Positions 28,116 to 63,516 of a stretch of DNA of 64,000 nucleotides are shown piece by piece. The stretch covers positions 12,011 to 76,010 of the forward strand of contig CALMKJ010000156.1 of the NCBI GenBank assembly GCA_937867305.1, given 5' to 3'. The translations under genes and the position numbers were made by a program. Under the pieces are notes generated by a model. That model had not been told where the DNA came from, made no database searches, and was given only the letters and a program-made list of their open reading frames with translations. The stretch is from an uncultured Ectothiorhodospiraceae bacterium. GTDB lineage: Bacteria; Pseudomonadota; Gammaproteobacteria; JAABTG01. The first letter of the stretch is position 1, and every line of letters starts with the position of its first letter.

Positions 28116-28167
28116 CACCCCAGTGGCCCGGGTGCACGTACCTCGTCATCCCGCACACAGGTGCTTC

Positions 28168-28515
28168 ATGGATGACGAGCACCGCAGCCCCGGGCAAGAC
28201 CCGGTGACGACCGAGCGTGTCCTCGTGTTCCGGCTGGTGGCCGGGCCGGACGGACGTACCCCGCCACCGATCTACGTCGACCAGTTGGGGGCGTTGATCA
28301 ACCGCACCCATCCTGGGGTGCCGTTGGAGGTGCTCGGGTTCTCGACCAGGTTCGACAAGCTGACGGCCGACGTCGAGTTCGACGACGTGTGGCGTGACCC
28401 GGAGACCGCGGTCGGCAAGTACGCGGTCCTGCTGTTCCCCGGCATGGTCGTACGCACGTCGATCCATGTGACCGGGGCGGCGTCCGGGTTGACTGCCTAC
28501 CACCCGGCCCGATGA
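28168..28515 (+). CDS. hypothetical protein (115 aa)
   Basis: ATG 9 nt after class-1 motif (GGTGCACG-N12-CCCGCACACAG). Confidence 0.45.
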   Translation: MDDEHRSPGQDPVTTERVLVFRLVAGPDGRTPPPIYVDQLGALINRTHPGVPLEVLGFSTRFDKLTADVEFDDVWRDPETAVGKYAVLLFPGMVVRTSIHVTGAASGLTAYHPAR

Positions 28516-28548
28516 GCACAACGGACCGCAGCCGCACACCGTCACGAC

Positions 28549-29031
28549 ATGACGACCTCCCACACCGAAGCAGCCAGCAAGCAGCCCCGTCATTGCGACG
28601 GCCGGTTCAGTTCGTTCGCCTCACCGGAAGGCGACGCGAAGCTGGATGCCGTCCCGGTGTCGCCGTCGCGTGAGTTGGAGGGTCGGTGGTCGGCCAACCC
28701 GCGTCCCGCCGACGCGGACCCGATCACGGTCCCGTGTGCCCCGACGATCGCCCTGGTCGACGACGAGACGGCTGTGTGCCCGTTGTGCCGCGGCTCGAAA
28801 GTCACCTCGACGGCGTGGGAGCTCGACGGCGGTGAGGTCTGCTACCTGTGCGCGGGTACCGGGGTTGTGCCGGTTGTCATGGCCCGCCGGTTCGTCGCCG
28901 ACGTACACCGCACGTTCGGCCCGTTGGAGAACGGCCCCGACTTCGAGCAGATGTCCGACGACCGGGTCGAGCACCTGTACGGGCACCGGGCCGAGGTCGC
29001 GGAGTGGGCTGGGGACGACAACCCGGTGTGA
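28549..29031 (+). CDS. hypothetical zinc-ribbon protein (160 aa; CPLC...CYLC)
   Basis: Track ORF; class-1 motif CCGCACACC 9 nt upstream. Confidence 0.45.
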   Translation: MTTSHTEAASKQPRHCDGRFSSFASPEGDAKLDAVPVSPSRELEGRWSANPRPADADPITVPCAPTIALVDDETAVCPLCRGSKVTSTAWELDGGEVCYLCAGTGVVPVVMARRFVADVHRTFGPLENGPDFEQMSDDRVEHLYGHRAEVAEWAGDDNPV

Positions 29032-29143
29032 CTGGCGGGTCCGGCTACGCTGAGCATCGAAGCCCTGGGGTAACCCGAGCACCCCGGGGCTTCGCCATGC
29101 CCGGACGGTGCACGGGACGTCCGGCCCCGCACACAGACACGGC

Positions 29144-29482
29144 ATGACCACTTCTTCTGAGACGTACACGATCACCACCGTCAGCGGCCGGACCCGGGTG
29201 ATCCCGGACCGGCTCATCGACCAGGTCGTCGGCCTGGACGATGAGGGCCGCATCGTCGTCGACACGCACGGCTACCTCAACGACACGTCGAACAGCGCGT
29301 TCCTGTTCGGGCTCACCATGTGCTGCGACGCCTTCGACAAGGGCGTCGAAGACGCCGTCGTGTGCCGGGGCTGCTACTCCACCGACGACACCGGCAACTA
29401 CCTGTGGTTCAACGGCCACGAGTTCGACGGCCTCGACCCGATCTCCGCCGACCCGCACCCGACGCCGCAGGAACTGCGGTGA
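29144..29482 (+). CDS. hypothetical protein (112 aa)
   Basis: Internal ATG of track ORF 29108..29482, 9 nt after a full class-1 motif. Confidence 0.45.
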   Translation: MTTSSETYTITTVSGRTRVIPDRLIDQVVGLDDEGRIVVDTHGYLNDTSNSAFLFGLTMCCDAFDKGVEDAVVCRGCYSTDDTGNYLWFNGHEFDGLDPISADPHPTPQELR

Positions 29483-29496
29483 CCGGGCCTCGTCAG

Positions 29497-29597: not shown

Positions 29598-29903
29598 GAG
29601 GACCCGGCCCGGCACGACCGGCACGTGTTCACCGCCACCGCCCTGCTGACCAACCTGCGCGCCGACATGGCCGGCCGGCCCGGGATGCCCCTGTTCAGTC
29701 CTGACGCGCAGGCACGGCTGTCGACCGAAGCTCTCGCTCACGCGGTCCTCGCGCTCGACTCGACCCTCACCCGGTTGCTCGACCAGCACCCCGCCGCACG
29801 CAAACCGTCGCAAACTGAACAGTCCAGGACCCGCACCGCATCCGAAGGTAAAGATTGAGCCCCAGCCCGATCAGGGCACCCGTTCCCCGCACACCGACAC
29901 GAC

Positions 29904-30116: not shown

Positions 30117-30184
30117 GCCGACAGGCTCCCCTCCCACCGGGCGACAGCCCGGACCCGACCCGACAGGGCATCTAAATAAGCTCG

Positions 30185-35177: not shown

Positions 35178-35207
35178 CACCGGCTCCCCTGCACCCGGTG
35201 TTTGCGC

Positions 35208-39000: not shown

Positions 39001-39989
39001 AAGCGCGTTCGGCCGGCGTGACTCTGCTGCTGGCGACCCAGAAACTGACCGCCAAAATGTTGGAGGTGGTGCCGGGGTCGAGCGATCTGAAGCAGAACCT
39101 GGCCCACATTCTGCTCGGCAACGCCTCTTCATGGGACCGGCAGTCGGCGTTGACCAGGCCCGAGAATGCTCCGCCGCTGGTCGGCCACGTCCCGAAGGGC
39201 CGCGGCTTGTGGGAGTCGTTGACGTCCAACGCCGTCGTCATCCAGACGTGGTTCGCACCGCAGAACGTGATGGCTCACGAGCTGTCGTCGCGTGGGCGGG
39301 TGCTGGAGGAGTCGGAGAAGGTCGACCTGTCTCGTTTCACGGCGCCGGCTTTGGAGGTCGACGGGGAGGTCATCGGCCCGGCGAACCCGGTGTTCACGGG
39401 TCCGGCGGAGGTCGATGAGGTGATCGAGCTCGACGACCTCGAGTTCAGCTTGGACGACTTGGAGCTCGACCTCGACGACGTACCGCCTCCGGGCGAGGGC
39501 GAGTCACAGGGGCCTGATTCTCCGGTCGCTCCGGCACCTTCTCTGCCGACGGCCGAGTCGGCTGACCCGGATGTGGTGAGTGTCGGTTCGGAGGTCGTGT
39601 GGGACGAAGTAGACCCGTCGCCGTGGACCCCGGAGGTGTCCGACTACGGGTGGGACGAGGTGGACGCGTTCGAGGCGTTCTTGGCCGAGTTCGGTCATGT
39701 CGGCCAGGTGACGTGGATGGACCCGAGGTTGTTGACGCCGGGCCCGGACGGGTCGCTCCTGGTGGACACGGTCCAGGAGATCGCGGATGCGGCCGGTGTC
39801 GTGTTCACGGGTCCGGACCTCCCTGTTCCCACCCCACCGTCTCCCGCTCCGGCGGCGGCGAACCTGGTCGACTTCGACTTCGAGGAGCGTCCGTCGGTTC
39901 CCCCGCACACCTTGCCGGCAACACCGGGGGACGACTTTGACGCGCCTGCGCCGCCTCCGGTTCGCGACGAGGAGGACCCGTTCGCATGA
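36036..39989 (+). CDS. large membrane-bound FtsK/SpoIIIE-family ATPase (1317 aa)
   Basis: N-terminal TM helices (AFVVLLVVTGLVAGLAGVWFGVPGFVFTWFAWVVAAWAL); a single P-loop LLAGTTGSGKSVLAQ followed by VYVIDPIKG; Walker B VVMIDEFTSLMG; acidic repeat-rich C-terminal tail. Variant class-2 motif CGGCACAGGGAAGGC directly precedes the ATG. Confidence 0.6.
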   Translation: MSTARARPRSRSRSAAQQPQGTEAFVVLLVVTGLVAGLAGVWFGVPGFVFTWFAWVVAAWALTPPELTGTDMNRNPVPQGPREERAMRRFNFARSAKWGLVFPFHAFWPGWPVKAAWLAGLVAGLAAFLVPHRAVPGRPPFALNVVDGLFVLVLVTQAAAARRDSVVLGDRSPGVAVDGLRGLFADASAKLPREAAFGLVTAAGLFGGAVGWWYVAPLLGAPAPLGSFAGPLWGVVGLFTGLGAAAGPAWVSASLTHWRTVVAARREWAPCWTMLKHVNPPQLLDRRTVGPAIVDTFRADGSMGSQSYLRLGEKILQARGTSHRIAVHTVPARDPQGQPIPGSADPLGFLIVSWPNDVAPDLTDPSEDPAVLRLYVESVFAWLGEGWGAGPVLDEMTLLTTPDAAAAWMLTLFSAGSLQWDGLRREGIKGMSGYLGCQVLVDHRDPQANKPTGQAVYAGNLTHDPELSGESPVSADDLEYLHYEDEWNGRWAAALKRDSNPPTPYRSTRSTEKLPNGQEIHRMAFVTRQGVDPREFFNLEAKVAATLSGAPFLTITGWQLNNRAGERHAQAFTVFWSSAAVPGNPDRLPPAPPPGRPERGRRGRVAPPSTDAQRWVLGGIVNDAFKAARLARPEVHKVRCLTDPGSRGHIWALSIRLFDGVTLADVRGASQRLRQQMGSEWLRVESAADGVTIVAGVSPSRATVATKHDSDWLVSLDWEQAWLDSKVSGVGGFTPRLVEVGNLPANQQVQVLDFSLPSGLAVGDVKAATSKLETATGNAFVDVRMHPNGKPDMMRVLVCEVSPLPERVNFDFEAADAADGVVFATGVEGEPIVFDSSSSPHALLAGTTGSGKSVLAQCFLYGFLTAPGGADVYVIDPIKGAADFKFAEPYAKAFAVDTFQAAGVLKTVYAEVVRRKNENAKHGASSYRELPDPPLPIVVMIDEFTSLMGQSPVPKPSDDPEMERERALLIADNAARVEVGVLTGKLAREARSAGVTLLLATQKLTAKMLEVVPGSSDLKQNLAHILLGNASSWDRQSALTRPENAPPLVGHVPKGRGLWESLTSNAVVIQTWFAPQNVMAHELSSRGRVLEESEKVDLSRFTAPALEVDGEVIGPANPVFTGPAEVDEVIELDDLEFSLDDLELDLDDVPPPGEGESQGPDSPVAPAPSLPTAESADPDVVSVGSEVVWDEVDPSPWTPEVSDYGWDEVDAFEAFLAEFGHVGQVTWMDPRLLTPGPDGSLLVDTVQEIADAAGVVFTGPDLPVPTPPSPAPAAANLVDFDFEERPSVPPHTLPATPGDDFDAPAPPPVRDEEDPFA

Positions 39990-40540
39990 CGATTCCGAAC
40001 GACGACACCCCGGTGGTCGCTGACGTGTGTACGGGTGACGTGGTCGCCGAATGGTGGGGGTTGTACCGCGGTGACGTGCGGGCCCGCTTGGGTGACATGA
40101 CTCGCGACCACGGGTTGGCGGACGACTTGACCGTGGAGACGTTCGTGCGGCTGATCCGGCATCTGCGCTTGGGGCGTCCGACCCCGGACAACCCGAAGGC
40201 GTGGCTGCGGGTCACGTCCCGGCGGCTGCTGATCGACCATCTGCGCAGGTCGGCGGTGCGCGCTGAGGAGCCGCGGGCCGACATGCCGGTCATGGTGTCG
40301 TTCTCCGACTTCGACGCCGTGGCTCGTTCGGAGGAGGCGCGTGCGTGGCTCGATACACTCGACCCGAGACAGCGCACGATCATGGAGCTGCGCGACTTCC
40401 ACGACCTTTCGACCGCCGAAGTGGCCGGCATCTTGGGGATGACGGAGCAGGCGGTTCGGTCGGCCCGCCACAAGGCGGTGGTCCATCTGCGTGGGCGAGG
40501 TGCCCCGCACCGTGACGTTGCCGAGGAGGCGAGCGCGTGA
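39986..40540 (+). CDS. ECF-type sigma-70 family sigma factor
   Basis: Region 2 (DLTVETFVRLIRHLRLGRPTPDNPKAWLRVTSRRLLIDHLRR) and region 4 (LDPRQRTIMELRDFHDLSTAEVAGILGMTEQAVRSARHKA); ATGA overlap with the upstream gene. Confidence 0.6.
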   Translation: MTIPNDDTPVVADVCTGDVVAEWWGLYRGDVRARLGDMTRDHGLADDLTVETFVRLIRHLRLGRPTPDNPKAWLRVTSRRLLIDHLRRSAVRAEEPRADMPVMVSFSDFDAVARSEEARAWLDTLDPRQRTIMELRDFHDLSTAEVAGILGMTEQAVRSARHKAVVHLRGRGAPHRDVAEEASA

Positions 40541-41602: not shown

Positions 41603-41649
41603 ACCTGTTCTGTGTGCGGGGCCGGCTGTTGCGTGCACCTTGCTCTGGT

Positions 41650-42447
41650 TCAGACCTCCGCGGTGATGCGGTGCGGGTAGGTGCGCCGGTATTCGCGGAC
41701 GGCGTAGGCGACGGCGTGGCACGACATGAGGAAGTGGTGGCTGTACCCGCCGAGGTCCCATTCCCACGTGTCGGCGAACTGGAAGTTCCTGTCTGACGGC
41801 AGCCGGACCTCGAAGTCGTCGAGCAGTTCGCGGGCTTCGCGTTCGTCGGTCGGGGGCAGGTCGATGAGCCGGTTGTGGACGGCGTCCCGGATGAGAGCCT
41901 GGTTGGATTCGCTGTACCAACCGGAGGCGTCGTCGAGGTGGTTGCGGATGTGCTCTTCGTACACCTCGAAGTCGAAGTCGTCTTTGGTTTGTCCACAGAC
42001 GACTTTCTCGCCCCAGTAGCCGGGGTTGATGCCGGTCCCGTTGAAGAAGTCCATCATGTCGTGGAGCCTGCGGAATGTGTACGGGGCGAAGTCTCCGCCG
42101 ACGTGCAGGTGTCCGGGCCACGTGACGATGTCGAAGTAGTAGAACCGGCTCTTCGGGGCGGCGAACCGCAGGTGCCGGTACGGGGACCCGGCGGGGCCGG
42201 ACACGTCGTGCAGCACCGTCATGGTGTGGTCGGCGGTGACGGACTCGAAGTATGCCTGGGCGCGGACCAGCGAGGTCCAGTAGGTGGTGGCGGGCCGTTC
42301 CGTCCCGTCGACGATGACGGTGGAGGGTCGTTGGGGAGCAGGCCAGATACCGGATGCGGACCGCTTGGGGTCAGGCTCGGGGTGTTCGGTGCCGAGCACC
42401 TCGTCGACGACGGGACCGGTGACGGTCTCGGTGCGGGGTTTGGTCAT
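41650..42447 (-). CDS. hypothetical protein (about 265 aa)
   Basis: Internal ATG (MTKPRTETVTG...) of track ORF 41650..42483, directly after a class-1 motif; the upstream codons of the ORF are simply the motif translated. Confidence 0.5.
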   Translation of the reverse strand: MTKPRTETVTGPVVDEVLGTEHPEPDPKRSASGIWPAPQRPSTVIVDGTERPATTYWTSLVRAQAYFESVTADHTMTVLHDVSGPAGSPYRHLRFAAPKSRFYYFDIVTWPGHLHVGGDFAPYTFRRLHDMMDFFNGTGINPGYWGEKVVCGQTKDDFDFEVYEEHIRNHLDDASGWYSESNQALIRDAVHNRLIDLPPTDEREARELLDDFEVRLPSDRNFQFADTWEWDLGGYSHHFLMSCHAVAYAVREYRRTYPHRITAEV

Positions 42448-42455
42448 GCCCGGGT

Positions 42456-42528
42456 TGTGTGCGGGTCCGGCGGGTTGGTGCACCCGGCCGGGTGTCGATC
42501 GGTTCGGCTTCGTCCCCGCACACCATGC
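42456..42528. promoter_or_regulatory. divergent control region: minus-oriented class-1 motif for 41650..42447 and plus-oriented CCCCGCACACC for 42533..43543, sharing a central GGTGCACC palindrome
   Basis: Seen directly in the 85-bp intergenic space between the two divergent start codons. Confidence 0.4.
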
Positions 42529-42532
42529 AGGT

Positions 42533-43543
42533 ATGAGCGCATCTGTCAGTAGGGGAGCCGAGTCGGCTCGTGAAGCCGCCCGTCAGCGGAACGGCAAGTT
42601 CGGGGCCCAGCACCTCCCGGAAGGCGACGGCGTCGACTTGGTTGTCGGGTCCGACGAGTTCGCTGCGGTCGCGTCTACGGACCGGCGGGTACGTGACCTG
42701 TTGGGCGACGTGGACGACTACCTGTTGGGCACCGTCACCCGCCCCGAATGGGTGGACCGGTTGTCCGAGCGGCTGCCCGCGATCGGGGACGCGGTGGGTC
42801 ATGACCGGTCGTTCGACGAGGAGTTCCTGCGCCCGCTGGTGTTGGCCGCGGAGGCTGGCGACGTGGACGAGGCGCGCCGGATCGCACGCAAGCTCGTCGA
42901 CCTGGATGTGGCGGAGCAGGCGTACCTGGACCAGGACTGGCGTCCGCCTGGGGTGCTGGTCGAGCGCGAAGACCTCATGTACGGCAACGTGTTCACCGGC
43001 GAGCGGTACGACTCGCGGCGCCGGCTGTCGGAGACGGCGAAGCTGATGCGCGCCGACATCAAGGACGCTCAGGCTGCCGGGTACATCCCGCCCGAGTTCA
43101 CCTACCGGGTGGTGACCGACTCGGGTGGCGGCGCGGTCCGCATCGAGGTGGAAGGGATGCCGGACGAGGACGCGTTCTGGCGTGACTACCACTCGCCGTA
43201 CCGGAACGGCCGCGAGTTCGGCACCCGTCCGTCGTGGGCGCGGTACCGGTTGACCGACCGGTTGAGAGGCATCGGCCGGGCGTACGCACGGCAGCAGAAC
43301 AACAGCCAGGTCGACTACTTCAACAACTCCCACGACGTGGCCGTGACCATCCGGCAGGAGTCGGAGACGATGTACTGGCGGCACGTGAAGGAGAGGTCGA
43401 ACCTGGCCGCGGAGATCCGTCGAACCCCCGCCAGTGACCCGAACCGGACCGAGCTGTTGGCGCAAGCCGAGGCGTTGCACACCGAGCAGAAGAAGGAGCT
43501 CGCCGCGAAACAGGAAGCCGACCGGGCCTCCTGGGGTTGGTGA
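42533..43543 (+). CDS. hypothetical protein (336 aa) with N-terminal SAREAARxxNGKFG motif shared with the ArdC-like protein
   Basis: Internal ATG of track ORF 42284..43543, preceded by CCCCGCACACC. N-terminus MSASVSRGAESAREAARQRNGKFGAQH, compared with MSTIQISPGAASAREAARKPNGKFGEQ at 51333. Confidence 0.5.
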   Translation: MSASVSRGAESAREAARQRNGKFGAQHLPEGDGVDLVVGSDEFAAVASTDRRVRDLLGDVDDYLLGTVTRPEWVDRLSERLPAIGDAVGHDRSFDEEFLRPLVLAAEAGDVDEARRIARKLVDLDVAEQAYLDQDWRPPGVLVEREDLMYGNVFTGERYDSRRRLSETAKLMRADIKDAQAAGYIPPEFTYRVVTDSGGGAVRIEVEGMPDEDAFWRDYHSPYRNGREFGTRPSWARYRLTDRLRGIGRAYARQQNNSQVDYFNNSHDVAVTIRQESETMYWRHVKERSNLAAEIRRTPASDPNRTELLAQAEALHTEQKKELAAKQEADRASWGW

Positions 43544-43597: not shown

Positions 43598-44234
43598 TCA
43601 TCGGAGGAGTGGGTCGAGCCGGCCGGCGAGGGCTTTCGTCATGGACGACCTGACCCCGCCGGGGCCTTTCACTTCGTCGCGCCACCCGGTCCACGTCCAG
43701 GTACGGAACTCGTCGAACGTGTCGGCTCGTCCGGCGTTGACCTGCCGGTGGGCCGTCTCCCGGTTCCGGGTGTCGAGTTCGGCGGTGAGCCGTTCCCAGG
43801 CGACGGTCCGGTTCTGGTGCTGGGACCGTTCTTCGGTGGCGGTGACGACGATGCCGGTCGGCAGGTGGGTCAGCCGGACCGCGGAGTCGGTCTTGTTGCG
43901 GTGTTGCCCGCCGGCGCCGGACGCCCGGTACGTGTCGATTCGGACCTCTCGTTTGTCCAGGTGCACGGGGACCGGGGTGCGGTCGTCGTCGAAGAAGACG
44001 ACGGTGACCAGGGAGGAGTGGCGACGTCCGCGTTTCTCGGTGTCGGGTACCCGTTGGACACGGTGCGACCCGGCGAGCGCACGGTAGGCGGGGTCAAAGA
44101 CGGTGGAGGTGGAACGCGCCACCCTCGAACCGGGGCGTGGCCCGGGCGTGCTTGCCGATCGCGTCGGCCAGTTCTTGTGCGAACGCGGCAGCGTCCGCTC
44201 CACCCTCACCGGGGTGGATCTCCATGCGGGGCAT
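43598..44234 (-). CDS. peptide-chain release factor homologue (GGQ domain; lacks RF domain 1, PrfH/RF2-like) encoded in two frames joined at a CTT TGA C +1 frameshift site
   Basis: Frame A (44234 down to about 44094): [46 protein letters not shown], then stop. Frame B continues as [16 protein letters not shown]...RRHSSLVTV...[41 protein letters not shown]... to 43598. The junction heptamer CTTTGAC equals the prfB shift site. GAAGGGAGGG RBS and class-2 motif upstream. Confidence 0.5.
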
Positions 44235-44296
44235 GATGCCCTCCCTTCGTTGTCGTCTCCTGCCTGTGCCACCACCGTGTGACCGGGTGGCTGAGG

Positions 44297-44602: not shown

Positions 44603-44689
44603 GATGTTCCTGTGTGCGGGGAGACCCGGGCCGTGCACCCGTGGTCGGCTACGTTGAAGCGAGCACCCGTCAACGTGAAGGAGTTCCTT

Positions 44690-46277: not shown

Positions 46278-46280
46278 GCC

Positions 46281-46312
46281 TTGTCTGTGTGCGGGGCCGG
46301 CCGGTTCGTGCA
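46281..46312 (-). promoter_or_regulatory. class-1 bipartite motif (sense: GGTGCACGAACCGGCCGGCCCCGCACACAG) 8 nt upstream of the 45783..46277 start; an identical 30-mer recurs at about 46551..46582
   Basis: Exact 30-nt duplicate within 300 bp; same architecture as at least 16 other copies in the window. Confidence 0.45.
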
Positions 46313-46333
46313 CCGGTTCGGCGGGCTGAACCG

Positions 46334-46410: not shown

Positions 46411-46942
46411 CCTGCGCGGCCACGGAGCGAGTTCCCCACGAGGGGTCGGCGTGGGTGCCGTCGAGCTGTGCGGACTCGGCGCGCGTACGTCGCGCCTCAT
46501 CCTTGCAGGCTCGCTCTGCAAGTTCTGGTTAGTCGGATCGCGGTGCGTTCACGTTCAACCTGTGTGCGGGGCCGGCCGGTTCGTGCACCGGTCCGGCACA
46601 CGCAGGCTTGTCACCCAAGCGCGACTGGCTCCGGCGGACGCCGTTCCCATCCGGGTCGCCGCGGCGCGTTGAGCCGCTTCCCTGCCTCGAGGAGGACCCC
46701 GCCCCACACACCCCATTCCTGCCGTTGGAGCCCGAGTTGCAGGCATACGAGCCGGGCGGGGCAGGCGACGCAGTACGACTTCGCGTTGGCAAGCTCGATG
46801 ACGTTGTCGGGGTCGAAGATGCGCGGGTCTGCCCCCACACACGCCCATTCGAGGGAACGGTCGTGTGGCGTCGGGTGTTGTGACGCGATCTGGTGCGCTT
46901 TCGTGGCCATGCTGACGTTCACCTCCTTCGGGTTTGCGGGTT

Positions 46943-47015: not shown

Positions 47016-47028
47016 CGTGTTGACACCT

Positions 47029-47066
47029 TGATGGTGTGCGGGGTGCCCCGTCGCGTGCACCCGAAC
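47029..47066 (-). promoter_or_regulatory. class-1 motif (GGTGCACG-N12-CCCCGCACACC) 20 nt upstream of the tRNA-Lys 5' end
   Basis: Shows that the motif also precedes non-coding genes, so it behaves as a promoter rather than a translation signal. Confidence 0.45.
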
Positions 47067-47457
47067 CAGACCTGTGCCACCACCGGGTGGCCACGTGGAA
47101 GAAGGGGCGTGGTGGCTGTTCCCGCAACCGGGTGCAGTCCCTTTCGAGGCCCGCTCCGGCACGGCCGCTAAGCCGTACCGGTCAGCCCACCACTGGCGCA
47201 CATCCTTCGCCTTGCCGAGTTGTTCGTCCTCGCTTCACCCGCCGGTGAAGTCTGGTCCGCTCGGTCGCGACGCCATCTGTGCGCCGCACCCCGGATCGGG
47301 TCCGGGTACTGGTTCCGGCTGCGTACCGGGCCTCCACCAGCAGGCGCTCCGACGAGTCGGACCGGGATGTTGAGTCCCGGCGTGCTTTCTCCCGCGCACG
47401 GCTACGGCCTCCGCCTAGTTCCCCGGTTGCGAACCGGTTCTGCATGAGGTGACGCAG

Positions 47458-47530
47458 TGGGGCTGGGGAGTCTTGAACTCCCGACCTCCTGCGCTTGCCG
47501 CAGGCGCTCTACCAACTGAGCTACAGCCTC
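47458..47530 (-). tRNA. tRNA-like sequence with noncanonical anticodon loop (GGCAAGC, G at position 33) and an A-C mismatch in the acceptor stem; possible pseudo-tRNA
   Basis: Reverse complement reads GAGGCTG TA GCTC AGTTGGTA GAGC G CCTGC GGCAAGC GCAGG AGGTC GGGAG TTCAAGA CTCCC CAGCCCC A. The D-arm and T-arm are canonical. A class-1 motif lies about 48 nt upstream. Confidence 0.35.
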
Positions 47531-47632
47531 TTCAACAGGTACTGCGTGCGGCGGCTCGGGGACCACCTTTGCTGCCGTACAACCTACCTGTGTGCGGGAA
47601 CTCCCGGTTCGTGCACCGTTACGCTGCCGGTC

Positions 47633-47902
47633 ATGGCGTTGATGCCCAACGAGCTGAGGACCTTGGACCGGCACGCGCGCGGCGTCGGTCGGCGCATCGG
47701 GCACTCGATGCGTGTCTTCGTGCCGTCGAACGAGGAGTACCTGGCGTTGACGGTGCTGCACGACGGCGTCGAATGGTCGTTGGTGGGCCCGTCCCGGGTG
47801 GACAACGACTTGGTAGCCCACGACATCGACGCGACGTTGTGGTTGCTGTCGGTTGGGGCGTGCCGGATCGAGTCGACTGACGATGGGCCCCGGATCGCCT
47901 GA
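47633..47902 (+). CDS. hypothetical protein (89 aa)
   Basis: Internal ATG of track ORF 47495..47902; normal composition (VFVPSNEEYLALTVLHDGVEWSLVG); no recognisable RBS or motif. Confidence 0.3.
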   Translation: MALMPNELRTLDRHARGVGRRIGHSMRVFVPSNEEYLALTVLHDGVEWSLVGPSRVDNDLVAHDIDATLWLLSVGACRIESTDDGPRIA

Positions 47903-47935
47903 GCGTCACCCGCCTTCCCCGCACACCTCGGGGGC

Positions 47936-48871
47936 ATGAGCTTCAATCACGCGAACACGGTGTGGCAGTCACCGGACGGCACCTGGAACCGGGGCTTCCA
48001 CCCGGTCGACTACTACGAGTGCGGCATGTCGGACGACTGCGACGACGAGACCCATGAGTGGTGCGCGGTGTTCGACGACGACTCGTTCGAGTGGGTCTCG
48101 GGCGGGCACCGGACCGTCGACGAGGCGTACGCCTCGTGGGACGGCGCCAACCCGGGCAGCGCGGAGCAACGGGCCCCGTACGCGAAGCAGGACGAGGCGG
48201 GTCGTCGTGACATCGAGCGGTTGGAGGACATGGCCGCGAGGCTGTGCGAGAGGAACCCTCAGTGGTCGTATCGGGGTCCGCGGAGGCAGCGGACGTTGGC
48301 TGCGGTCGCGGCCCAGCGCAACGAGGTCGAGAGCGCCCAGTTCGGGTACCGGTTGGGCGGCTACGCCAACGACGTGACCGAGGAGTTGAAGGCCCTGAAC
48401 GATCGTGTTGTTGAGCGGTTGACGAGTGCCACCGACGATGAGAAGCGCGCCTACTTGGATCTGCAACGCGACCGCCGGGACGGTCTGCAGAAGATGTTGG
48501 ACGAGCATCTGGACCGGCGCCGGAAGCAGATCGTCCGGGACCGTCGGTACACCTTCTCGTCGTACCCCAGCCCGGAGTCGGCGGGCCGGCTGGCCGCTGT
48601 GTCGAAGGCTGAGGACGACGTAGCGAAGCGCATCGCGGCGATCGACCGAACACGGGCGCGGCAGCGTCAGGAGTTCTTCGAGCAGCCGACACCCAAGCCG
48701 GCTACCGCACCGGCCAAGAAGACGGCCGTCAAGAAGGCACCAGCGACGACACCGGCGCCGGCGAACCGGGGGAAGACGACCGCGGCGTCGACACCAGGGT
48801 CGTTCGCACCGAAAGCACTGGGCGAGGGCGACGTGGTGCTCATCGACGACCTGTGGGACGCCCCGAACTGA
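47936..48871 (+). CDS. hypothetical protein (311 aa) with Lys/Ala/Pro-rich tail ending RGKTTAASTPGSFAPK...
   Basis: Track ORF; class-1 motif CCCCGCACACC 9 nt upstream; C-terminal tail shared with the next gene. Confidence 0.5.
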   Translation: MSFNHANTVWQSPDGTWNRGFHPVDYYECGMSDDCDDETHEWCAVFDDDSFEWVSGGHRTVDEAYASWDGANPGSAEQRAPYAKQDEAGRRDIERLEDMAARLCERNPQWSYRGPRRQRTLAAVAAQRNEVESAQFGYRLGGYANDVTEELKALNDRVVERLTSATDDEKRAYLDLQRDRRDGLQKMLDEHLDRRRKQIVRDRRYTFSSYPSPESAGRLAAVSKAEDDVAKRIAAIDRTRARQRQEFFEQPTPKPATAPAKKTAVKKAPATTPAPANRGKTTAASTPGSFAPKALGEGDVVLIDDLWDAPN

Positions 48872-51293: not shown

Positions 51294-51332
51294 CCCGGAG
51301 CGGGCGGCGCATCTCCCGCACACCGCACCGGC

Positions 51333-53229: not shown

Positions 53230-53273
53230 CCGGCCGGGAGCATCAACGGCCCTGACCCGCACACCAGGATGGT

Positions 53274-58182: not shown

Positions 58183-58199
58183 GAACAAGGAGCCGACCC

Positions 58200-58760
58200 A
58201 TGATCGACCAGAGCCACATGCTTCCCGAAGATGTGCGTGAACGTGTCCGCCGTGAGGTGACCGGCCAGATCGGCGCGGAGAACCACCGCCTCATCCGGGC
58301 GGTGGCGGTCCGGGTCCTCCTCACGTTGGCGTTGGTCAGCTACGTCCTGATCACGTTGGACACGGTGGAGGATGAGCCTGAGTTCTTCGCGCTCATGTTC
58401 GCGTCCGTGACCGCGTTGGCGGGCCTGGTCGCGGCTGATGCGTCGTTGCGGATCCCGCAACTGTTCGCCGGCGCGGTGGCGAGGCGTCAGCCGTTCGCGA
58501 TCCCGGCGGACCCGAGCCGTTGGTTGAAGTGGGCGACTGTCGGTGCGTCCGCGACGTTGTGGGTGCTGCCGTTGAGCGCGGGCACGGGGACTTTCCTTTC
58601 CGGTGTTGCGTTGGCGGTTGCGTTGCTGCCTGTCTTGTTCTTCGTTTCCAACGTGGTGTTGCGTGCGTCGTTGGCTCAGTGGGTCGGGTTGCCGGCCCGG
58701 GTCACGATGGACCTCGTGTCGGGTCGAGACGGCGACGCTGATCCGCGCACTGGTGCATGA
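58200..58760 (+). CDS. integral membrane protein (186 aa)
   Basis: Track ORF; GGAACAAGGAG RBS; 4-5 predicted TM helices. Confidence 0.45.
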   Translation: MIDQSHMLPEDVRERVRREVTGQIGAENHRLIRAVAVRVLLTLALVSYVLITLDTVEDEPEFFALMFASVTALAGLVAADASLRIPQLFAGAVARRQPFAIPADPSRWLKWATVGASATLWVLPLSAGTGTFLSGVALAVALLPVLFFVSNVVLRASLAQWVGLPARVTMDLVSGRDGDADPRTGA

Positions 58761-58788
58761 GGCGGGTCTTCCCGCACACAACCCAGCC

Positions 58789-61764
58789 ATGAATGACGGC
58801 ACCCCTGGCGACCGGATCGCCGCGCTGCGCGCCGAGATCGAACATGTCCAACGCGACGTCGCCGACCTGACCGGGCCGGACGCGGCGTCCAAGGAGGTTG
58901 TCTCGCTCGGTTCCGGTGGTGTCCCGGCGGAGGTGACGCGCGCCCAGTTGGCGCAGGTCCGGGGACGAGCGTTGAAGCAGGCTCAGCGTCTGGAGTCGTT
59001 GCGCAAGCAGCTTGTCGCCGAGTACGAGGCGCAGGCGCGCGCCGTGAGGAAAGAGCTGGACGCCCTGATCGTCCCGTTGCGTGAGCAGATGGCCCGCATG
59101 GAGGAGGGCCTGTGGACGGTGAACCTGTACCTGGGCCGCGACGAGGAGATCGTGCAGCTTCTCGACGGGGAGCCGGCACCGGTCGAATCCCCGATCTCGT
59201 TGCGCCAGCAGGTGCTGTCCATGGACGAGGAGACGGCCGCGTTCGCGGAGACCGGCGGCATCGACGCCCGCAACATCGACGTGTTCGACGAATGGGTGAA
59301 GAACCCGGCGCATCTGGCGCAGGTGTTCCCTGAGCCGAAAGGTGTCGTCGTGCTGGTGCCGCGACACCGGGGCCGCGACTATGAGGACCCGTGGGTCAAC
59401 CGGGCGATGCGGGAAGAGAACGCCTGGTCGTACTTCCTCATCCGCAACGGTGAACGGTTGTACCGGATGCGCACCGACTTCGTGGTCGGGAAGCACCTGA
59501 TTCCGACGACGACCGAGTTCACTGGCCTGTTCTCGGGGCGCCGTTTCAACCCGGAGACCCGGACCGATGAGGTGTACGAACTGACCCCGGGCACTCGGGA
59601 ATGGGACGCCGCCGCGAAGTCCCAGGACGCCCGGCAACGGCACTTCATGCGGATGGCGTTGGTCCTGCAAGGTCTGGTCGACCGGACGACCGTGTGGCAC
59701 CCGCTCCCGCCCCACGGAGTGAACCTGTTGAGCAACGACACGTACGCGCACGGCACCGCGGTCCTGGTACGGGACGCCGAACACGTGTTGACGGACGGAC
59801 GGGACGACTTCTTCACGTGGCTCTCGAAGCTGACCGACCAGATGCGCCCCGGCATGAGAATCCTCGGTGCGTTCAACACCGACGAGTTCCGTCATGCCGG
59901 CGGCTGGCGCGCCCCGTCCAGCGACGACGGGTGGCGTGGGCGTACGAGCGACCGGGTCAGCCCGAACGGGTCCGAGTTCCCCGCCACTGGTGTGATTCAC
60001 CGGTTGGAGGGCCGCAAGACGCTGCACGACGTGCAGGGGTTCACGTTCAAGTTCGAGCGGGTGCGGAAGTCGTACATCGACGACGAGTACCGGGCCCCGA
60101 AGACCCGTGGGACGTGCACGGTCCTGCCCGGCGACAAGTTCGTGTTGCCGTACGACCTGGTCACCGTCGAAGAGATGCGGTACTACCTCGGTTCGCGGCG
60201 GCAGCGAGGCGCCTACGAGTACATGTTCCCGCTCCTGCACGCCGCTATCGCAGCCAAGGAGGCGGAAGCGGCCGAGGAGGCGCCGTTCCGGGGGCTGCTG
60301 GCCGGTGAACTGGCGAAGACGGACCCGTCGTTGACGTTCGACGAGGCGACTGTCGTGGCCGACGAACTGGTGCACTGGTGGAAGTTCACGAACCGGTACC
60401 ACCGTGCCCTGAACGGCGACCCGACCCATGAGGCGCAGGCGGTTCGCGACATCGTGGCTGAGCACCGGGCTCGCAGGTCGGCGGCGTCGGTCCAGTCTGG
60501 TGATGAGCCCGCGGAGCAGGCGATGGTGGAGCGGCTGCTTGCCGAAGACCCGTCGATCATGGTGGTGGCCCGTAAGCGTGACGGCCGGTACTTGGCGTTC
60601 GCCCCGCAACCCCGGGTCTACCCGGCCGGGAAGGTGGGGCACCCGGCCACGAACGTGGCGCAGCCGCGTCCGTTGACGCCGCAGGAGGTCGAAGCGTTCA
60701 AGGCGAAGCAGCATTGGATGTTCCGTGACCGTGACCCGGAGGCGGGCCGGCTGGTGTTCGCGGCGGTCGCCGACAACGTGTGGGCCGTCGAGTACGTCGT
60801 GTCGAAGACGGGTCGTTCGACGAAGCGCCGCGAATGGGTGCAGCCCGGCAACAGGTTGGATCGGACCCGCGTCCTGTACTCCTCGCAGATGTGGGACGAG
60901 TTCGACATGCACGCCAGCGCGAACGCCCACCTGACCGACGTCGAGATCGACGACGTGATCAGCCAGGTCGTGCCCGAAGTGGAGGCGTACGCGATGGCAG
61001 GGTGGCCCACGTGGCGCAGTCGAGCCGAACCGGTTGTCCCGCTGATCCTCGGGGTGTGCCTGCGTGTCGACGGCGACACTCCCCGGTTCGAGGTTCACCT
61101 GATCTCGGACGAACTGCCTGGTCCGGTGACGGCGGAGCTCTCACCCGAGCCGTGGCGCGCAGAGATGACCGCCGGGGTGGTCATGGTCCCGTTCACGAAG
61201 ACCGTCCGCACCGGGGTCGTGCTGCACCGCGACGACGGTGACGGTGCGGCACCGTGGGGTTTGCGGTTCCGTAAGCCGAGGTACTCGACGGCGACGTTGG
61301 ACCGGCCGTGGCACTACTACTGGGACGGCCGGGCACAGGACGCGATCGCGTTGGTCACGTTCCCCGGCAACCAGGCTGTCGCCGTCGCACAGGCCGAGGC
61401 GATCAAAGCACACAACGCACGGGTCGACGACCTGTATGAGCGGGCCCGCCGACCGGTCGCCGTGGTCAAGAAGGCGTGGGAGGCCCGGGCCGAGAAGGAG
61501 GCGTATGTGCGGTTCCTCGAGGAGTACGCGGACCCCGAGCTGTGGGAGTCGCACAAGGAGACGTTGCGCGGTCTGGAAGCGAACATCCACCCGGCAGGCC
61601 GGGGCATCCCGAAGGTGCTCGACGAGGCGTTGCGCCGGTTCGTTCTCGACGGCCGGTCGTTCGAGGGGCACACGGTCCGGTCGGTGGTCGAGTCGTGCGG
61701 CCTGTTCGTGGACGGTGTCGCCGAAGACCTGCTGGACCTGCCTGTGTGGGAGGCGGGCGAATGA
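58789..61764 (+). CDS. large hypothetical protein (about 991 aa), no P-loop detected
   Basis: Internal ATG (MNDGTPGDR...) of track ORF 58603..61764, 8 nt after a class-1 motif (GGTGCATG-N12-CCCGCACAC); coiled-coil-like N-terminus. Confidence 0.5.
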   Translation: MNDGTPGDRIAALRAEIEHVQRDVADLTGPDAASKEVVSLGSGGVPAEVTRAQLAQVRGRALKQAQRLESLRKQLVAEYEAQARAVRKELDALIVPLREQMARMEEGLWTVNLYLGRDEEIVQLLDGEPAPVESPISLRQQVLSMDEETAAFAETGGIDARNIDVFDEWVKNPAHLAQVFPEPKGVVVLVPRHRGRDYEDPWVNRAMREENAWSYFLIRNGERLYRMRTDFVVGKHLIPTTTEFTGLFSGRRFNPETRTDEVYELTPGTREWDAAAKSQDARQRHFMRMALVLQGLVDRTTVWHPLPPHGVNLLSNDTYAHGTAVLVRDAEHVLTDGRDDFFTWLSKLTDQMRPGMRILGAFNTDEFRHAGGWRAPSSDDGWRGRTSDRVSPNGSEFPATGVIHRLEGRKTLHDVQGFTFKFERVRKSYIDDEYRAPKTRGTCTVLPGDKFVLPYDLVTVEEMRYYLGSRRQRGAYEYMFPLLHAAIAAKEAEAAEEAPFRGLLAGELAKTDPSLTFDEATVVADELVHWWKFTNRYHRALNGDPTHEAQAVRDIVAEHRARRSAASVQSGDEPAEQAMVERLLAEDPSIMVVARKRDGRYLAFAPQPRVYPAGKVGHPATNVAQPRPLTPQEVEAFKAKQHWMFRDRDPEAGRLVFAAVADNVWAVEYVVSKTGRSTKRREWVQPGNRLDRTRVLYSSQMWDEFDMHASANAHLTDVEIDDVISQVVPEVEAYAMAGWPTWRSRAEPVVPLILGVCLRVDGDTPRFEVHLISDELPGPVTAELSPEPWRAEMTAGVVMVPFTKTVRTGVVLHRDDGDGAAPWGLRFRKPRYSTATLDRPWHYYWDGRAQDAIALVTFPGNQAVAVAQAEAIKAHNARVDDLYERARRPVAVVKKAWEARAEKEAYVRFLEEYADPELWESHKETLRGLEANIHPAGRGIPKVLDEALRRFVLDGRSFEGHTVRSVVESCGLFVDGVAEDLLDLPVWEAGE

Positions 61765-62174
61765 CGCACGAGGCCGAGGTGCACGCCACCGGTCTCTCCG
61801 CACACAACCCGGACGTGACCAGCTTCCAGGTGTTCCGCCGCGTCGGAACCAAGAACGAGACCTGCCTGTACGGCGGCCGGCACACGGTCGTGTACGTCGA
61901 TTCGGTCTGGGTGACCCCGACGGGCGAGACCCGGCCTTACGACAACGGCTACGAGACGGGCGAGAACAAGCTGTTCGTCGACCAGGACGGCGAGGTGTAC
62001 GAGCGCGTCCAAGGCTTCGACTACTGCAGTGTCCCGCGGTGGGTCCGTGACAGCGACCGGAAGCGGTTCGAGCGCAGGTGGACCGACCCGGCCCGCGAAC
62101 TGACCGGCAACGGCTTGAACGGGTGCCCTTCCGGCGCCCCGTGGTGGGCTGTCGAAGACGAGCGCCGCCATTGA
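61761..62174 (+). CDS. hypothetical protein (137 aa)
   Basis: ATGA overlap with the upstream stop; tail of track ORF 61476..62174. Confidence 0.45.
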   Translation: MTHEAEVHATGLSAHNPDVTSFQVFRRVGTKNETCLYGGRHTVVYVDSVWVTPTGETRPYDNGYETGENKLFVDQDGEVYERVQGFDYCSVPRWVRDSDRKRFERRWTDPARELTGNGLNGCPSGAPWWAVEDERRH

Positions 62175-62416
62175 ACCGGGAGCCGAATCCGGCGGTCGGT
62201 CAGCGGTGGGTCCGCCGGGGCGACGGAACACTGTGGCGCGTCATTGGCCGGCGGCGCTCCGGATGGGTGCTGTCCAGTGGACCGGGACGTGTCCTGGTCG
62301 TCGGTCTGCACGAGTTGATCACCGACTTCGACCATGCGGGGTGCGACCACGACTACGCCTGCTGTTTCGAGCACGGGACGCACACGAACCCGCACCGAGG
62401 CTGCATGCTGCGCTGA
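62171..62416 (+). CDS. small Cys/His-rich protein (81 aa), TTG start
   Basis: Overlapping ATTGA junction; C-terminal CDHDYACCFEHGTHTNPHRGC cluster suggests metal binding. Confidence 0.3.
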   Translation: MNREPNPAVGQRWVRRGDGTLWRVIGRRRSGWVLSSGPGRVLVVGLHELITDFDHAGCDHDYACCFEHGTHTNPHRGCMLR

Positions 62417-62494
62417 GCGGTCGTCGGGGTGCGTGGAATGGCCCTCGTTTGCGCATGACCCTATGTAGAGGTTGTTGAAAGAAAAGGTCCCGTC

Positions 62495-63469
62495 ATGCGT
62501 CGACGCGTCTCGTTGTTCGTGCGTCCCAGCGCGCGCCGTCACGGGGAGTCCGGTCTTGCTCTGATGGACGTGCTCCTCGGTATGGCGATCTTCGCCCTGG
62601 TCGCTGTCATCGCCGTTCAGGCGTTCGGCATCTTCAAGCAGCGTGCCTATGTCACGCAGGCAGTCTCCGACGCCCACCAGGTGGGCATGGCGATCGCCGC
62701 AGCCATGACGGACCCCAACTTCATCCCCGGGCCTGGCATGGCGGACTCGCCGACGATCCCGACCGGGACGATCACCGACGACCAGTTGGGCGCGCTGGGT
62801 GCCAACCGGACCGCCGAGAACCGGATCGTGATCCAGGTGGACCCCGGTGTCGGGTACAACGTGTGCGTCGACAACCAGTACGCCTACGCCTGGTACGAGC
62901 AGGAGCCCGGCACCGTCACCCGGTCCGGGAAGCTGTCGGAATCCGAGCCCGGCTGCGAAGACTTCGTCAGCGGGGACCCCGTGTGCATCGACCCGAGCGA
63001 GACCCCGATCTGGATCGACCCGGAACCGGCCTACATGGAGGACTACAACCCGACCGTCAGCTACGACAGCTCCGACTTCGCTCTGCCGTGGGACGCCGGC
63101 ATCACTCAGGACTACTGGGCCGCCAACGGTCACAGCTGGTGGCAGGGCGACGGGCACACGTACACGCTCGACCCGTACAGCTCGTCCGGCGCGTGGGTGC
63201 TGCGCGACGGCGTCCAGTTCGGCAACGACTGGAACGGCGACCCGGTTCAGGTCGGGCGACTCGACAATCACTGGGTGTTCCCGTGGGACGAGTACGACGA
63301 GGCCGAGTACCAGGCATTGGTGGGCGACCGGTTCTACTGGAACGACGACGGCGCCACCTACACGGCCGACTTCGAGGGTTACGTGTACCGCAACGGCGAC
63401 CTGTTGACCCTGCAGGTGGAGGTACCGGCCGAAGACGGTCACTGGTACTGCGACTCCGGCGTCGGCTGA
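62495..63469 (+). CDS. prepilin-like secreted protein (Trp/Asp-rich globular domain); paralog of the 1..1041 product
   Basis: N-terminus MRRRVSLFVRPSARRHGESG|LALMDVLLGMAIFALVAVIAVQAFG is a class-III-signal-like leader (basic, Gly, hydrophobic helix, Asp at +5). GAAAGAAAAGG RBS; class-3 motif about 45 nt upstream. Confidence 0.5.
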   Translation: MRRRVSLFVRPSARRHGESGLALMDVLLGMAIFALVAVIAVQAFGIFKQRAYVTQAVSDAHQVGMAIAAAMTDPNFIPGPGMADSPTIPTGTITDDQLGALGANRTAENRIVIQVDPGVGYNVCVDNQYAYAWYEQEPGTVTRSGKLSESEPGCEDFVSGDPVCIDPSETPIWIDPEPAYMEDYNPTVSYDSSDFALPWDAGITQDYWAANGHSWWQGDGHTYTLDPYSSSGAWVLRDGVQFGNDWNGDPVQVGRLDNHWVFPWDEYDEAEYQALVGDRFYWNDDGATYTADFEGYVYRNGDLLTLQVEVPAEDGHWYCDSGVG

Positions 63470-63477
63470 CATCGGAC

Positions 63478-63516
63478 TGTGTGCGGGGAGCACGTTTGGC
63501 GTCTTCCCGCACACAG
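63478..63516. promoter_or_regulatory. perfect inverted repeat CTGTGTGCGGGGA-N14-TCCCCGCACACAG (two class-1 cores facing each other) between the pilin-like gene and the cvpA-like gene
   Basis: Seen directly; the right arm is the class-1 element 8 nt upstream of the cvpA-like ATG. Confidence 0.4.

Follow-up and report, generated by a model that had tools for sequence, protein, structure and literature searches.

A probable leaderless promoter repeated across actinobacterial megaplasmids and a divergent sigma-70 family protein as its candidate reader

What is the function of a short bipartite sequence that recurs on both strands of a stretch of DNA at a fixed distance from start codons, and that stands ahead of tRNA genes as well, and which factor reads it? 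The stretch in question, hereafter the window, comprises 64,000 nucleotides of contig CALMKJ010000156.1 (assembly GCA_937867305.1, positions 12,011 to 76,010), and the repeated sequence, hereafter the element, had been pointed out in an earlier note made from the letters alone. We hold with moderate confidence that the element is the leaderless promoter of a family of large actinobacterial plasmids and that a cryptic sigma factor, encoded at 16415-17422(-) of the window, is its reader.

The element is directional and has the form GG-(T/A)GCA(C/T)-N14-CGCACAC (n=23 copies), and 19 of these have ATG or GTG exactly 9 nt 3' of it. Its core, CCCGCACAC, is found 23 times on the two strands of the window against 3.0 expected from 100 dinucleotide-preserving shuffles, none of which reached 23. 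GWGCAY-N12-CCCGCACAC has 14 perfect matches, and 20 with at most two mismatches (1.6 expected), so that the 12-nt spacing worded in the text of the earlier note was right; the pattern in its title, G[TA]GCAC-N12-(T/C)CCCGCACAC, is one base too long and has a single match. Counted to CGCACAC, the spacing from GWGCAY is N14 and invariant across 17 window copies. The distance to the gene is likewise fixed rather than variable: instead of the 7-10 nt between core and start codon that had been proposed, ATG or GTG lies exactly 9 nt 3' of CGCACAC in 19 of 47 copies (~1.5 expected, p = 8e-17), and all except one of the start codons at this spacing begin open reading frames (ORFs) with the coding GC1/GC2/GC3 pattern of this 68% GC DNA. 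With the A or G of the start codon taken as +1, the upstream box occupies -37..-31 (GWGCAY at -36..-31) and the core CGCACAC -16..-10, with an invariant C at -17 and A at -11. All 23 window copies are oriented toward the downstream gene. Every copy listed in the earlier note proved to be real, the cores lying within ~10 nt of where it had placed them, and additional copies are present beyond its range at 5400, 6911, 13930 and 22016; the copy at 8235 is also outside that range. When metagenomes were scanned for the window-type pattern, contigs of one assembly, ERZ1645187, came up that hold 31 further copies, in 23 of which a start codon stands at +9. These sister contigs have the same GC content as the window and almost no genes in common with it, and they served as an independent test set.

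Two classes of copies can be distinguished in the window and the sister contigs taken together. In class 1, GWGCAY is found at N14 and A at -9 (23/30), and in class 2 the box, (T/C)GAGC(A/G), lies 1 nt further upstream and is paired with C at -9. The association of box class with the -9 base has a Fisher p of 1.5e-6. Class 1 copies stand ahead of the tRNAs and many small ORFs, and class 2 copies ahead of larger genes, including the operon of the sigma-like gene. This split suggests a second layer of control, be it of timing or of strength, or through a second factor such as an extracytoplasmic function (ECF) sigma or a WhiB-like protein.

Does the element act in DNA or in RNA? At the tenth nucleotide after the core, a pyrimidine at -1 is followed by a purine at +1 in 23 of 23 window copies and in 29 of the 31 copies of the sister contigs. 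Moreover, among Arthrobacter copies lacking a start codon at this position, 65/68 keep the purine at +1 (p = 2e-16) and 51/68 the pyrimidine at -1. The same pyrimidine/purine signature is the measured preference of transcription start sites (TSSs) in M. tuberculosis, a species with a quarter of its genes leaderless (PMC3898074). The mean duplex energy with the anti-Shine-Dalgarno (anti-SD) sequence is -2.7 kcal/mol for motif starts, against -7.3 for operon-internal starts (n=20) and -4.3 for random sites; the motif starts thus pair more weakly than random sequence, and the absence of anti-SD complementarity that the earlier note had reported is borne out. With the 9-nt spacing, these energies give the arrangement expected of sigma-A leaderless promoters, that is, a start codon at the TSS without a Shine-Dalgarno (SD) sequence.

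Two further observations concern the targets. The 85-bp intergenic region 42448-42532, between genes 41650-42447(-) and 42533-43543(+), consists entirely of two back-to-back copies, and the promoters of both genes must therefore be inside the copies. The class 1 copy 42448..42484(-) places +1 at ATG 42447 of a 265-aa ORF, and the divergent copy 42496..42532(+), with a non-GTGCAC box, places it at ATG 42533 of a 336-aa ORF. The divergent pair noted earlier thus stands (42457(-)/42515(+)), whereas the GGTGCACC palindrome said to be common to both is in register for the minus copy only, the box of the plus copy being different. Furthermore, the element precedes the only two tRNAs that Rfam finds in the window, tRNA-Lys(UUU) at 46943-47016(-) and tRNA-Leu(CAA) at 47457-47530(-), which rules out a purely translational signal. 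The copy 47025..47061(-), with a class 1 box, has its predicted +1 at 47024, 8 nt 5' of tRNA-Lys, which would thus receive an 8-nt leader from its own copy; the class 1 copy 47581..47617(-) has its predicted +1 at 47580, 50 nt 5' of tRNA-Leu. The association with tRNA-Lys had been described correctly, with a core-to-tRNA distance of 17 rather than 20 nt. One of the two tRNA-like sequences reported 3' of further copies is tRNA-Leu, 59 nt downstream of its copy, and the other has no counterpart: a tRNA-like RNA downstream of the copy at 46562 was rejected, as Rfam finds only tRNA-Lys and tRNA-Leu. The two tRNAs, each with its own promoter copy, decode A/U-ending codons on a 68% GC replicon, and relatives of the window element carry whole tRNA arrays.

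These observations bear on the view that the element acts in RNA, either as a processing site for leaderless mRNAs and tRNA precursors or as a non-SD translation signal. The fixed distance to start codons and a partial GUGC/GCAC complementarity between box and core would fit such a role. However, divergent copies that fill a whole intergenic region leave no upstream transcript feeding both genes, the element also precedes tRNAs, and the purine at +1 is kept even where there is no start codon. The upstream box, moreover, differs by lineage (CAC or AGA at -33..-31) with nothing in the core changing to compensate, which makes a role as an RNA stem unlikely. We consider an RNA-level function highly improbable.

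Which part of the element would then act as the -10 box? The window copies contain no TANNNT-type -10 between core and start codon, which means that the -10 function must come from the core itself, and no canonical sigma-70-type promoters were found in the region tested. At positions -12..-7, where sigma-A leaderless promoters carry their TANNNT hexamer, the window copies have CAC followed by variable bases and the Arthrobacter copies CACATA; a T at -7 is missing, and we agree with the earlier note that the element does not match the housekeeping sigma-A consensus. The general features of sigma-70-dependent promoters are nevertheless present in silico, namely two spaced boxes, a purine/pyrimidine start, and co-orientation with transcription units including non-coding ones. 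Single-nucleotide spacing, the Y(-1)R(+1) signature, the absence of SD sequences, the tRNAs, the divergent pair and the conserved geometry all support the proposal, made in the earlier note, of a promoter giving leaderless or near-leaderless transcripts. Very probably, the element is a promoter for leaderless transcripts that start at the first base of the start codon; initiation at +1 is itself a prediction from the sequence.

Sigma-A leaderless promoters of M. tuberculosis carry TANNNT ~7-12 nt upstream of a TSS that is also the start codon (PMC3898074). The element resembles them in its inferred TSS at ATG or GTG, the lack of an SD sequence, R+1/Y-1, A at -11 and closely spaced divergent promoters, and in both the -10 is directly preceded by a C/G-rich stretch, CGN in M. 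tuberculosis and CCGC in the element. Unlike these promoters, the -10 of the element is C-CGCACAC rather than TANNNT and has no T at -7, a strong -35-like box is present where none was found in M. tuberculosis leaderless promoters, and the element is limited to one mobile-element family, in which it is near-invariant over dozens to >100 copies.

Alternatively, the core might overlap ordinary sigma-A promoters and serve as the operator of a repressor or activator acting across the whole plasmid. GTGCAC is palindromic, and global operators are known from other large plasmids, such as those of KorA/KorB of IncP. A parallel is the 34-bp motif of Bifidobacterium breve megaplasmid pMP7017, which overlaps the -10 of 19 promoters, is absent from chromosomes, controls ~24% of the coding capacity and was read as a transcription factor site (PMC10832533). 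Both are plasmid-specific repeated promoter motifs, and pMP7017 is a distant relative of the window plasmid. Unlike the element, however, the pMP7017 motif (AWAYATGYTATACTGAATATGTCCACATAAAAWA) is AT-rich, with a canonical TATACT -10, leadered transcripts and a ribosome-binding site, and its 24-nt core has no match in the window with <=4 mismatches. The missing TANNNT hexamer and canonical promoters also speak against an operator, as does the one-nucleotide register with Y(-1)R(+1), which is typical of core promoter elements. An operator function is therefore quite improbable.

To what kind of replicon does the window belong? Megablast found no close DNA match to it in phage or plasmid collections. 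Its conjugation and partition genes, as identified with Pfam, encode a VirB4-like AAA_10 ATPase, a TrwB/FtsK-like coupling protein, two more FtsK/SpoIIIE proteins and a ParA-like ATPase. The remaining Pfam content includes a PD-(D/E)XK nuclease, a NERD domain protein, an ArdC-like protein, GNATs, a methyltransferase, a kinase, an intein-bearing ThyX, a MazZ-like domain, an RF-1-like protein, a WhiB-like protein and one ECF-type sigma. Eight megaplasmids of 375-608 kb, from Arthrobacter, Pseudarthrobacter, Paenarthrobacter and Curtobacterium, encode proteins with 50-58% identity to the VirB4-like protein, and those of Bifidobacterium megaplasmids, e.g. pMP7017, have ~29-30%; its best match in a scan of GTDB representatives is 57%. 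The gene order ParA-like, PD-(D/E)XK, VirB4-like is kept between the window and the megaplasmids. Together, the VirB4-like identity and the conserved gene order place the window in a Micrococcales-type actinobacterial megaplasmid family. When all window proteins were compared with an Arthrobacter plasmid, only the conjugation, partition and FtsK backbone was shared. A phage origin was rejected: a motif scan of IMG/VR gave single chance matches only, FtsK-like phage matches were weak, and the gene content is that of a conjugative megaplasmid.

The element follows this family. The complete plasmid of A. caoxuetaonis (NZ_CP099467.1, 374,851 bp) has 212 occurrences of CGCACAC, 133 of them followed by AT (CGCACACAT) and 109 by ATAG, and start codons that open an ORF most often stand exactly 9 nt after the core. 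The Arthrobacter form, GGTGAGAG-N-CCGCACACATAG-N5-ATG, has ~130 copies per 375 kb and the consensus cGG(T/G)GAGAGa-N11-(T/G)C-CGCACAC-ATAG-(G-rich)-T-ATG; pACHL01, a plasmid of Pseudarthrobacter chlorophenolicus A6, displays the same pattern. Further forms are found in a Nocardioides metagenome-assembled genome (GGGGAGGATC...CGCACAC-N9-ATG), in an element integrated in Aeromicrobium (TGAGCAA-N16-CCGCNTACCTAG-N5-ATG) and in Curtobacterium ((T)CCGCGCATAG-N7-ATG, 34 copies in ~105 kb). pACHL01 has 7 CCGCACACAT and 4 core-plus-start copies in 42 kb, and pACHL02, an unrelated conjugative plasmid of the same host, has none of either in 50 kb, which indicates an element specific to the plasmid family rather than part of the general promoter repertoire of the host. 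A start-anchored k-mer count worked on the window and gave too much noise on 20-kb loci; a de novo search of related loci for enriched k-mers was abandoned, being swamped by codon signal.

Several side observations were made on these relatives. The A. caoxuetaonis plasmid (L023-L030) carries unusually 'cellular' genes, encoding SecY/SecE/SecG, ClpX, DnaE, NrdEFI, LigA, thymidylate synthase and DHFR, as well as RtcB, an RNA ligase, two type IV pilus/type II secretion system clusters, Lsr2 and a tRNA array, and it has few motif copies in its 1-29 kb and 45-62 kb segments. The chromosome of Aeromicrobium sp. CTD01-1L150 harbors an integrated related element in which GTGAGTAA is repeated seven times, in both orientations, over 250 bp (L032 17499-17745); these repeats look like iterons or a partition site. 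On sister contig L078, a TnpB/IS605 OrfB gene with a Cas12f-like TNB domain (4596-5927(-)) lies right behind a class 1 copy at leaderless spacing.

Which factor, then, would recognize such a promoter? The best candidate is the 335-aa product (P0009) of the conserved megaplasmid backbone gene 16415-17422(-), which lies outside the coordinates covered by the earlier note and whose relatives are annotated as 'hypothetical' or 'HTH domain-containing'; its sigma identity is visible through profile and fold comparison only. Three orthologs give consistent sub-threshold matches to Sigma70_r3/r4, and the ortholog alignment displays blocks resembling regions 2.1-2.4, 3.1 and 4.1-4.2. In comparison with bona fide sigma factors, hhalign returned 93% with 8 sequences and 96.4% (E = 1.4e-9) with 96 sequences, over 211-219 collinear columns from region 2 through 4.2. 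Among the 96 family members, 19 match Pfam Sigma70_r3 and 3 match r2 or r4_2. A profile search of PDB sequences ranked FliA first (E = 8.7e-4), followed by >15 other sigmas. Furthermore, in an AlphaFold (AF2) model with mean pLDDT of 71 (~85-90 within domains), all of the top 50 Foldseek matches in PDB were sigma factors (~300 columns aligned, probability 1.0). On the collinear regions and the modeled sigma fold, the protein is a sigma-70 family member. It belongs to a small, discrete family, with 282 clusters found at E <= 1e-3 in a set of 1.84 billion representatives, and in PLSDB the protein is found on exactly the eight megaplasmids that share the backbone. The pACHL01 ortholog is WP_012623363.1. 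The gene is syntenic in the metagenomic relative L119, and in the window it sits in an operon headed by the motif copy at 22022. Translationally coupled to it is the gene of a small conserved protein (17425..17931(-)) with weak similarity to actinobacterial IHF (NF041260, E = 1e-5, below cutoff). In pS16 of Curtobacterium sp. MCSS17_016 (L123 18069-18440), a WhiB gene shares the operon of the sigma-like gene.

The region-4.2 helix of this protein changes along with the upstream box. In the window lineage (P0009-P0014, 41-65% identical overall) the helix is VGIAAPTVRRKIAEVK and the box GTGCAC; in Micrococcaceae the pair is VSRSTARSYVRKIK and GGTGAGAG, and in Curtobacterium IRQDRAADLLADVR and CxCACA. 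The prediction that contigs encoding P0011-P0014 would carry GTGCAC-type boxes held in all three full copies recovered, two of which lie within the PD-(D/E)XK gene at the orthologous site, whose box in Arthrobacter is GGGAGAG. This match of helix and box fits the sigma-like protein as the reader of the element. Considering these data together, the backbone protein is probably, on the sequence comparisons, the element's reader. As for the suggestion in the earlier note that one of two sigma factors encoded in the window reads the element, an element-encoded sigma is retained; of the two, however, only the ECF sigma at 39986-40540 is detectable with standard models, and it is absent from relatives that have the homologous promoter. 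The second 'sigma', in the ThyX intein, was rejected, its marginal Sigma70_r4_2 match being a helix-turn-helix only.

Several points weigh against this assignment. The helix-box match covers three lineages only and is inseparable from common descent. P0009 remains below Pfam thresholds (0 families at E <= 0.01) and below that of NCBIfam TIGR02937, with sub-threshold matches only, and its Foldseek TM-scores are low, ~0.2, because of the domain arrangement. By hidden Markov model (HMM) search the gene was undetected in loci L031-L043, e.g. A. terrae L038, where it would be expected if order were conserved; differing gene order or too-short flanks may account for this. A single sigma does not explain two promoter classes with one shared -10-like core. 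A primary-like sigma is encoded on all five Micrococcaceae megaplasmids, in three of which its gene immediately follows a motif copy, and the window belongs to a 79-kb contig whose replicon is presumably much larger, so that another conserved sigma could lie outside the 64 kb.

The last two points raise the possibility that the reader is another sigma, encoded outside the window or by the host, e.g. an ortholog of the primary-like plasmid sigma or an alternative sigma of the host. The Arthrobacter plasmids have two sigmas besides the backbone protein, the primary-like one and a FliA-like one that is missing in pACHL01 and pYJN5-1. Neither has a homolog in the window, and no other sigma common to the window and the Arthrobacter plasmid was found. 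The primary-like sigma, however, has canonical residues in regions 2.4, 3.0 and 4.2 (WWIRQAISR, RERIRQ), which predict recognition of TTGACA/TANNNT and not of CGCACAC. A host sigma is hard to square with the absence of the motif from the co-resident pACHL02 and with boxes that track the element lineage across host orders. A reader of this kind is unlikely. Two of the primary-like genes, in L114 (pACHL01 377249-380221) and L116 (pYJN5-1 45591-48560), encode proteins of ~990 aa, nearly 3x the size of the 370-aa orthologs, which suggests an intein or a large extension. An RNA polymerase encoded by the element itself was also considered and rejected: no convincing DxDGD-type signature was found, and two large unannotated proteins (1121 and 991 aa) are without relatives among the PDB sequences.

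The canonical ECF sigma of the window (184 aa, 39986..40540(+)) may be a rival or secondary reader, recognizing either the element as a whole or one of its two classes. It is the only window sigma found by standard models, its orthologs (57-74% identity, L020-L022) are located on syntenic contigs with window-type copies, and two promoter classes could match two sigmas, the ECF and another. Yet the gene is lineage-specific: it is absent from the Arthrobacter (tblastn, HMM) and Curtobacterium megaplasmids despite their homologous core and geometry. ECF promoters are characterized by an AAC-containing -35 and a CGT-containing -10. Those of group 4 resemble the element in being bipartite and highly conserved with little spacing tolerance, and an ECF sigma is indeed encoded in the window; unlike them, the element has neither AAC nor CGT, relatives carry >100 promoters per replicon, well beyond the normal size of an ECF regulon, and the ECF gene is not conserved with the motif. 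Moreover, the gene is operon-internal, translationally coupled to an FtsK-like gene, with its own conserved SD sequence (GAGGAGGA, 9 nt upstream), and displays no usual sign of autoregulation; autoregulation through a core copy at 39904 was rejected, as that copy is not conserved in L020 or the orthologous loci. We regard the ECF sigma as a rather unlikely reader. The WhiB-like transcription factor (46611..46922(-), 3' of tRNA-Lys) is a possible accessory factor. As conserved readers, both it and the ECF sigma were rejected, being missing from the A. caoxuetaonis plasmid also by profile search; the WhiB-like factor is not conserved in Arthrobacter plasmids.

With the backbone sigma as the reader, the element would be the core promoter of a self-contained transcription system on large conjugative actinobacterial megaplasmids. 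The plasmid's divergent sigma-70 family protein would direct host RNA polymerase to the element, its region 4.2 reading the lineage-specific upstream box and its region 2 the conserved CCGCAC-type box. Transcription would start 10 nt after the core, at a purine that follows a pyrimidine. In most copies the starting purine would be the A or G of the start codon, yielding leaderless mRNA translated independently of an SD sequence, and the remaining copies would drive tRNAs or leadered transcripts. In its widest form, the proposal is of an orthogonal expression system spanning Micrococcales, Propionibacteriales and possibly Acidimicrobiia, in which a divergent sigma and its promoter code serve >100 leaderless units and tRNA genes per replicon, insulated from the host, with the -35 re-coded at least 3 times together with the region-4.2 helix and a second class for temporal or conditional control. 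This we put forward as a tentative view that falls somewhat short of being probable.

Private promoters are known for the sigmas of several phages and plasmids, including SPO1 gp28 and gp33/34 in B. subtilis, T4 gp55 at late promoters and SigN of pBS32. As in those systems, a mobile element would redirect host RNA polymerase by means of a divergent sigma, and T4 gp55 likewise evades routine annotation. Unlike them, the present case concerns conjugative Actinomycetota megaplasmids, leaderless translation, tRNAs as well as ORFs, and a -35-like box re-coded in at least 3 lineages. The start-associated sequences of Cluster K mycobacteriophages, reportedly described by Pope and colleagues in 2011, are reported to have an SD-like GGAG core and a probable role in translation. 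They too are short conserved sequences a few nt 5' of many start codons of an actinobacterial mobile element; the element differs in its lack of anti-SD complementarity (weaker than random), its bipartite promoter geometry and its presence before tRNAs. In the literature we found no prior description of the motif, of the sigma-like family or of transcription in Micrococcales megaplasmids, and what is new here is the promoter consensus, the unrecognized sigma family and the systematic leaderless output in a mobile-element sigma/promoter system.

Apart from the divergent pair and the two tRNA copies, the class 1 copies of the window are distributed as follows. On the plus strand, 28131..28167 (GTGCAC, A at -9) predicts +1 at the A of ATG 28168 (115-aa ORF), 29107..29143 at ATG 29144 (112 aa), 58752..58788 (GTGCAT) at ATG 58789 (991 aa) and 61778..61814, with the core TCCGCACAC, at GTG 61815 (119 aa). 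On the minus strand, 5391..5427 (GTGCAT) leads to ATG 5390 (79 aa), 41603..41639 to ATG 41602 (80 aa), 44603..44639 to ATG 44602 (101 aa) and 46278..46314 to ATG 46277 (164 aa), and the copy 6902..6938, also with the core TCCGCACAC, has a predicted +1 at 6901 without a start codon, as for a leadered or non-coding transcript. Class 2 is represented by 28512..28548(+) (TGAGCA box 1 nt upstream, C at -9; ATG 28549, 160 aa), 29867..29903(+) (CGATCA; ATG 29904, 70 aa), 47899..47935(+) (TGAGCG; ATG 47936, 311 aa), 51296..51332(+) (GGAGCG; ATG 51333, a 352-aa ArdC/metallopeptidase-like protein) and 22007..22043(-) (GGATCA; ATG 22006), which heads the operon running from 21323-22006 through the ParA-like gene to the sigma-like gene. 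Three copies have GAGCA-type boxes: 53237..53273(+) (GAGCAT, C at -9) at ATG 53274 of a 126-aa ORF followed by an FtsK-like gene, 8226..8262(-) (GAGCAC, C at -9) at GTG 8225 of a 427-aa conserved backbone ORF, and 63487..63523(+) (GAGCAC, A at -9) at ATG 63524 of a CvpA-like gene.

Some of these copies have features of their own. The repeat noted earlier at 46281 and 46551 as an identical 30-mer is real and longer, with 33 identical nt (46285 and 46560; copies 46287/46562) shared by 46278..46314 and the class 1 copy 46553..46589(-). The latter has its predicted +1 at 46552, the GTG of a 7-codon ORF, and would start a ~250-nt transcript (46300-46552(-)) with that 5' ORF only and no Rfam match; it may be a small RNA or the leader of a longer isoform of the 45783-46439 ORF. 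At 63477-63516, just 3' of the stop codon of 62495-63469, two opposed cores, one of them that of the copy 63487..63523, form a perfect inverted repeat (CTGTGTGCGGG / CCCGCACACAG) with an 18-nt loop; it measures 11 bp (63477/63506) and not the 13 bp first given for 63478. The reversed core, at 63477-63487, has neither a -35 box nor a coding ORF, and the repeat could be a combined terminator hairpin and promoter. Finally, a full copy lies in frame inside the PD-(D/E)XK nuclease gene (13921..13957(-)), without a start codon at +1. Its position is kept in six other elements (L017 16803, L018 16750, L034 1144, L038 6811, L119 7446 and L122 4537), each of the seven having the -35 box of its own lineage, and it is probably an internal promoter for downstream genes.

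Other window genes deserve mention. The ThyX-like (Thy1) gene at 2294-4738(-) is split by an intein with HNH and HTH domains. The protein encoded at 5377-6321(-) combines a dATP/dGTP diphosphohydrolase N-terminal domain (MazZ-like, E = 4e-24) with DUF4406, which hints at unusual nucleotide metabolism on the plasmid. A 225-aa class-I release-factor-like protein (43598-44275(-)), with an RF-1 domain and a PCRF fragment, is a putative plasmid-carried translation-rescue or termination factor. The two large proteins mentioned above, encoded at 23747-27112(+) (1121 aa) and 58789-61764(+) (991 aa), have no Pfam or PDB sequence match, and the 1121-aa protein has a conserved counterpart on the Arthrobacter plasmid, with 36% identity over 1016 aa.

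If the proposed system is real, it would explain how genes are expressed on widespread and almost unstudied actinobacterial megaplasmids of 200-600 kb, whose cargo comprises tRNA arrays, genes for replication, secretion and conjugation, and mostly hypothetical ORFs. These replicons would rely on a private promoter and sigma that are invisible to current annotation, with leaderless translation by default. The motif would fix true start codons and transcription units, improving the annotation of the replicons, and would provide a simple sequence signature for finding the family in metagenomes. A new sigma family would be added to the catalogue, and its naturally diversified sigma/promoter pairs could serve orthogonal expression in high-GC Gram-positive hosts. 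Furthermore, the family would offer a clean system for sigma recognition of a -10 box without the canonical T at -7.

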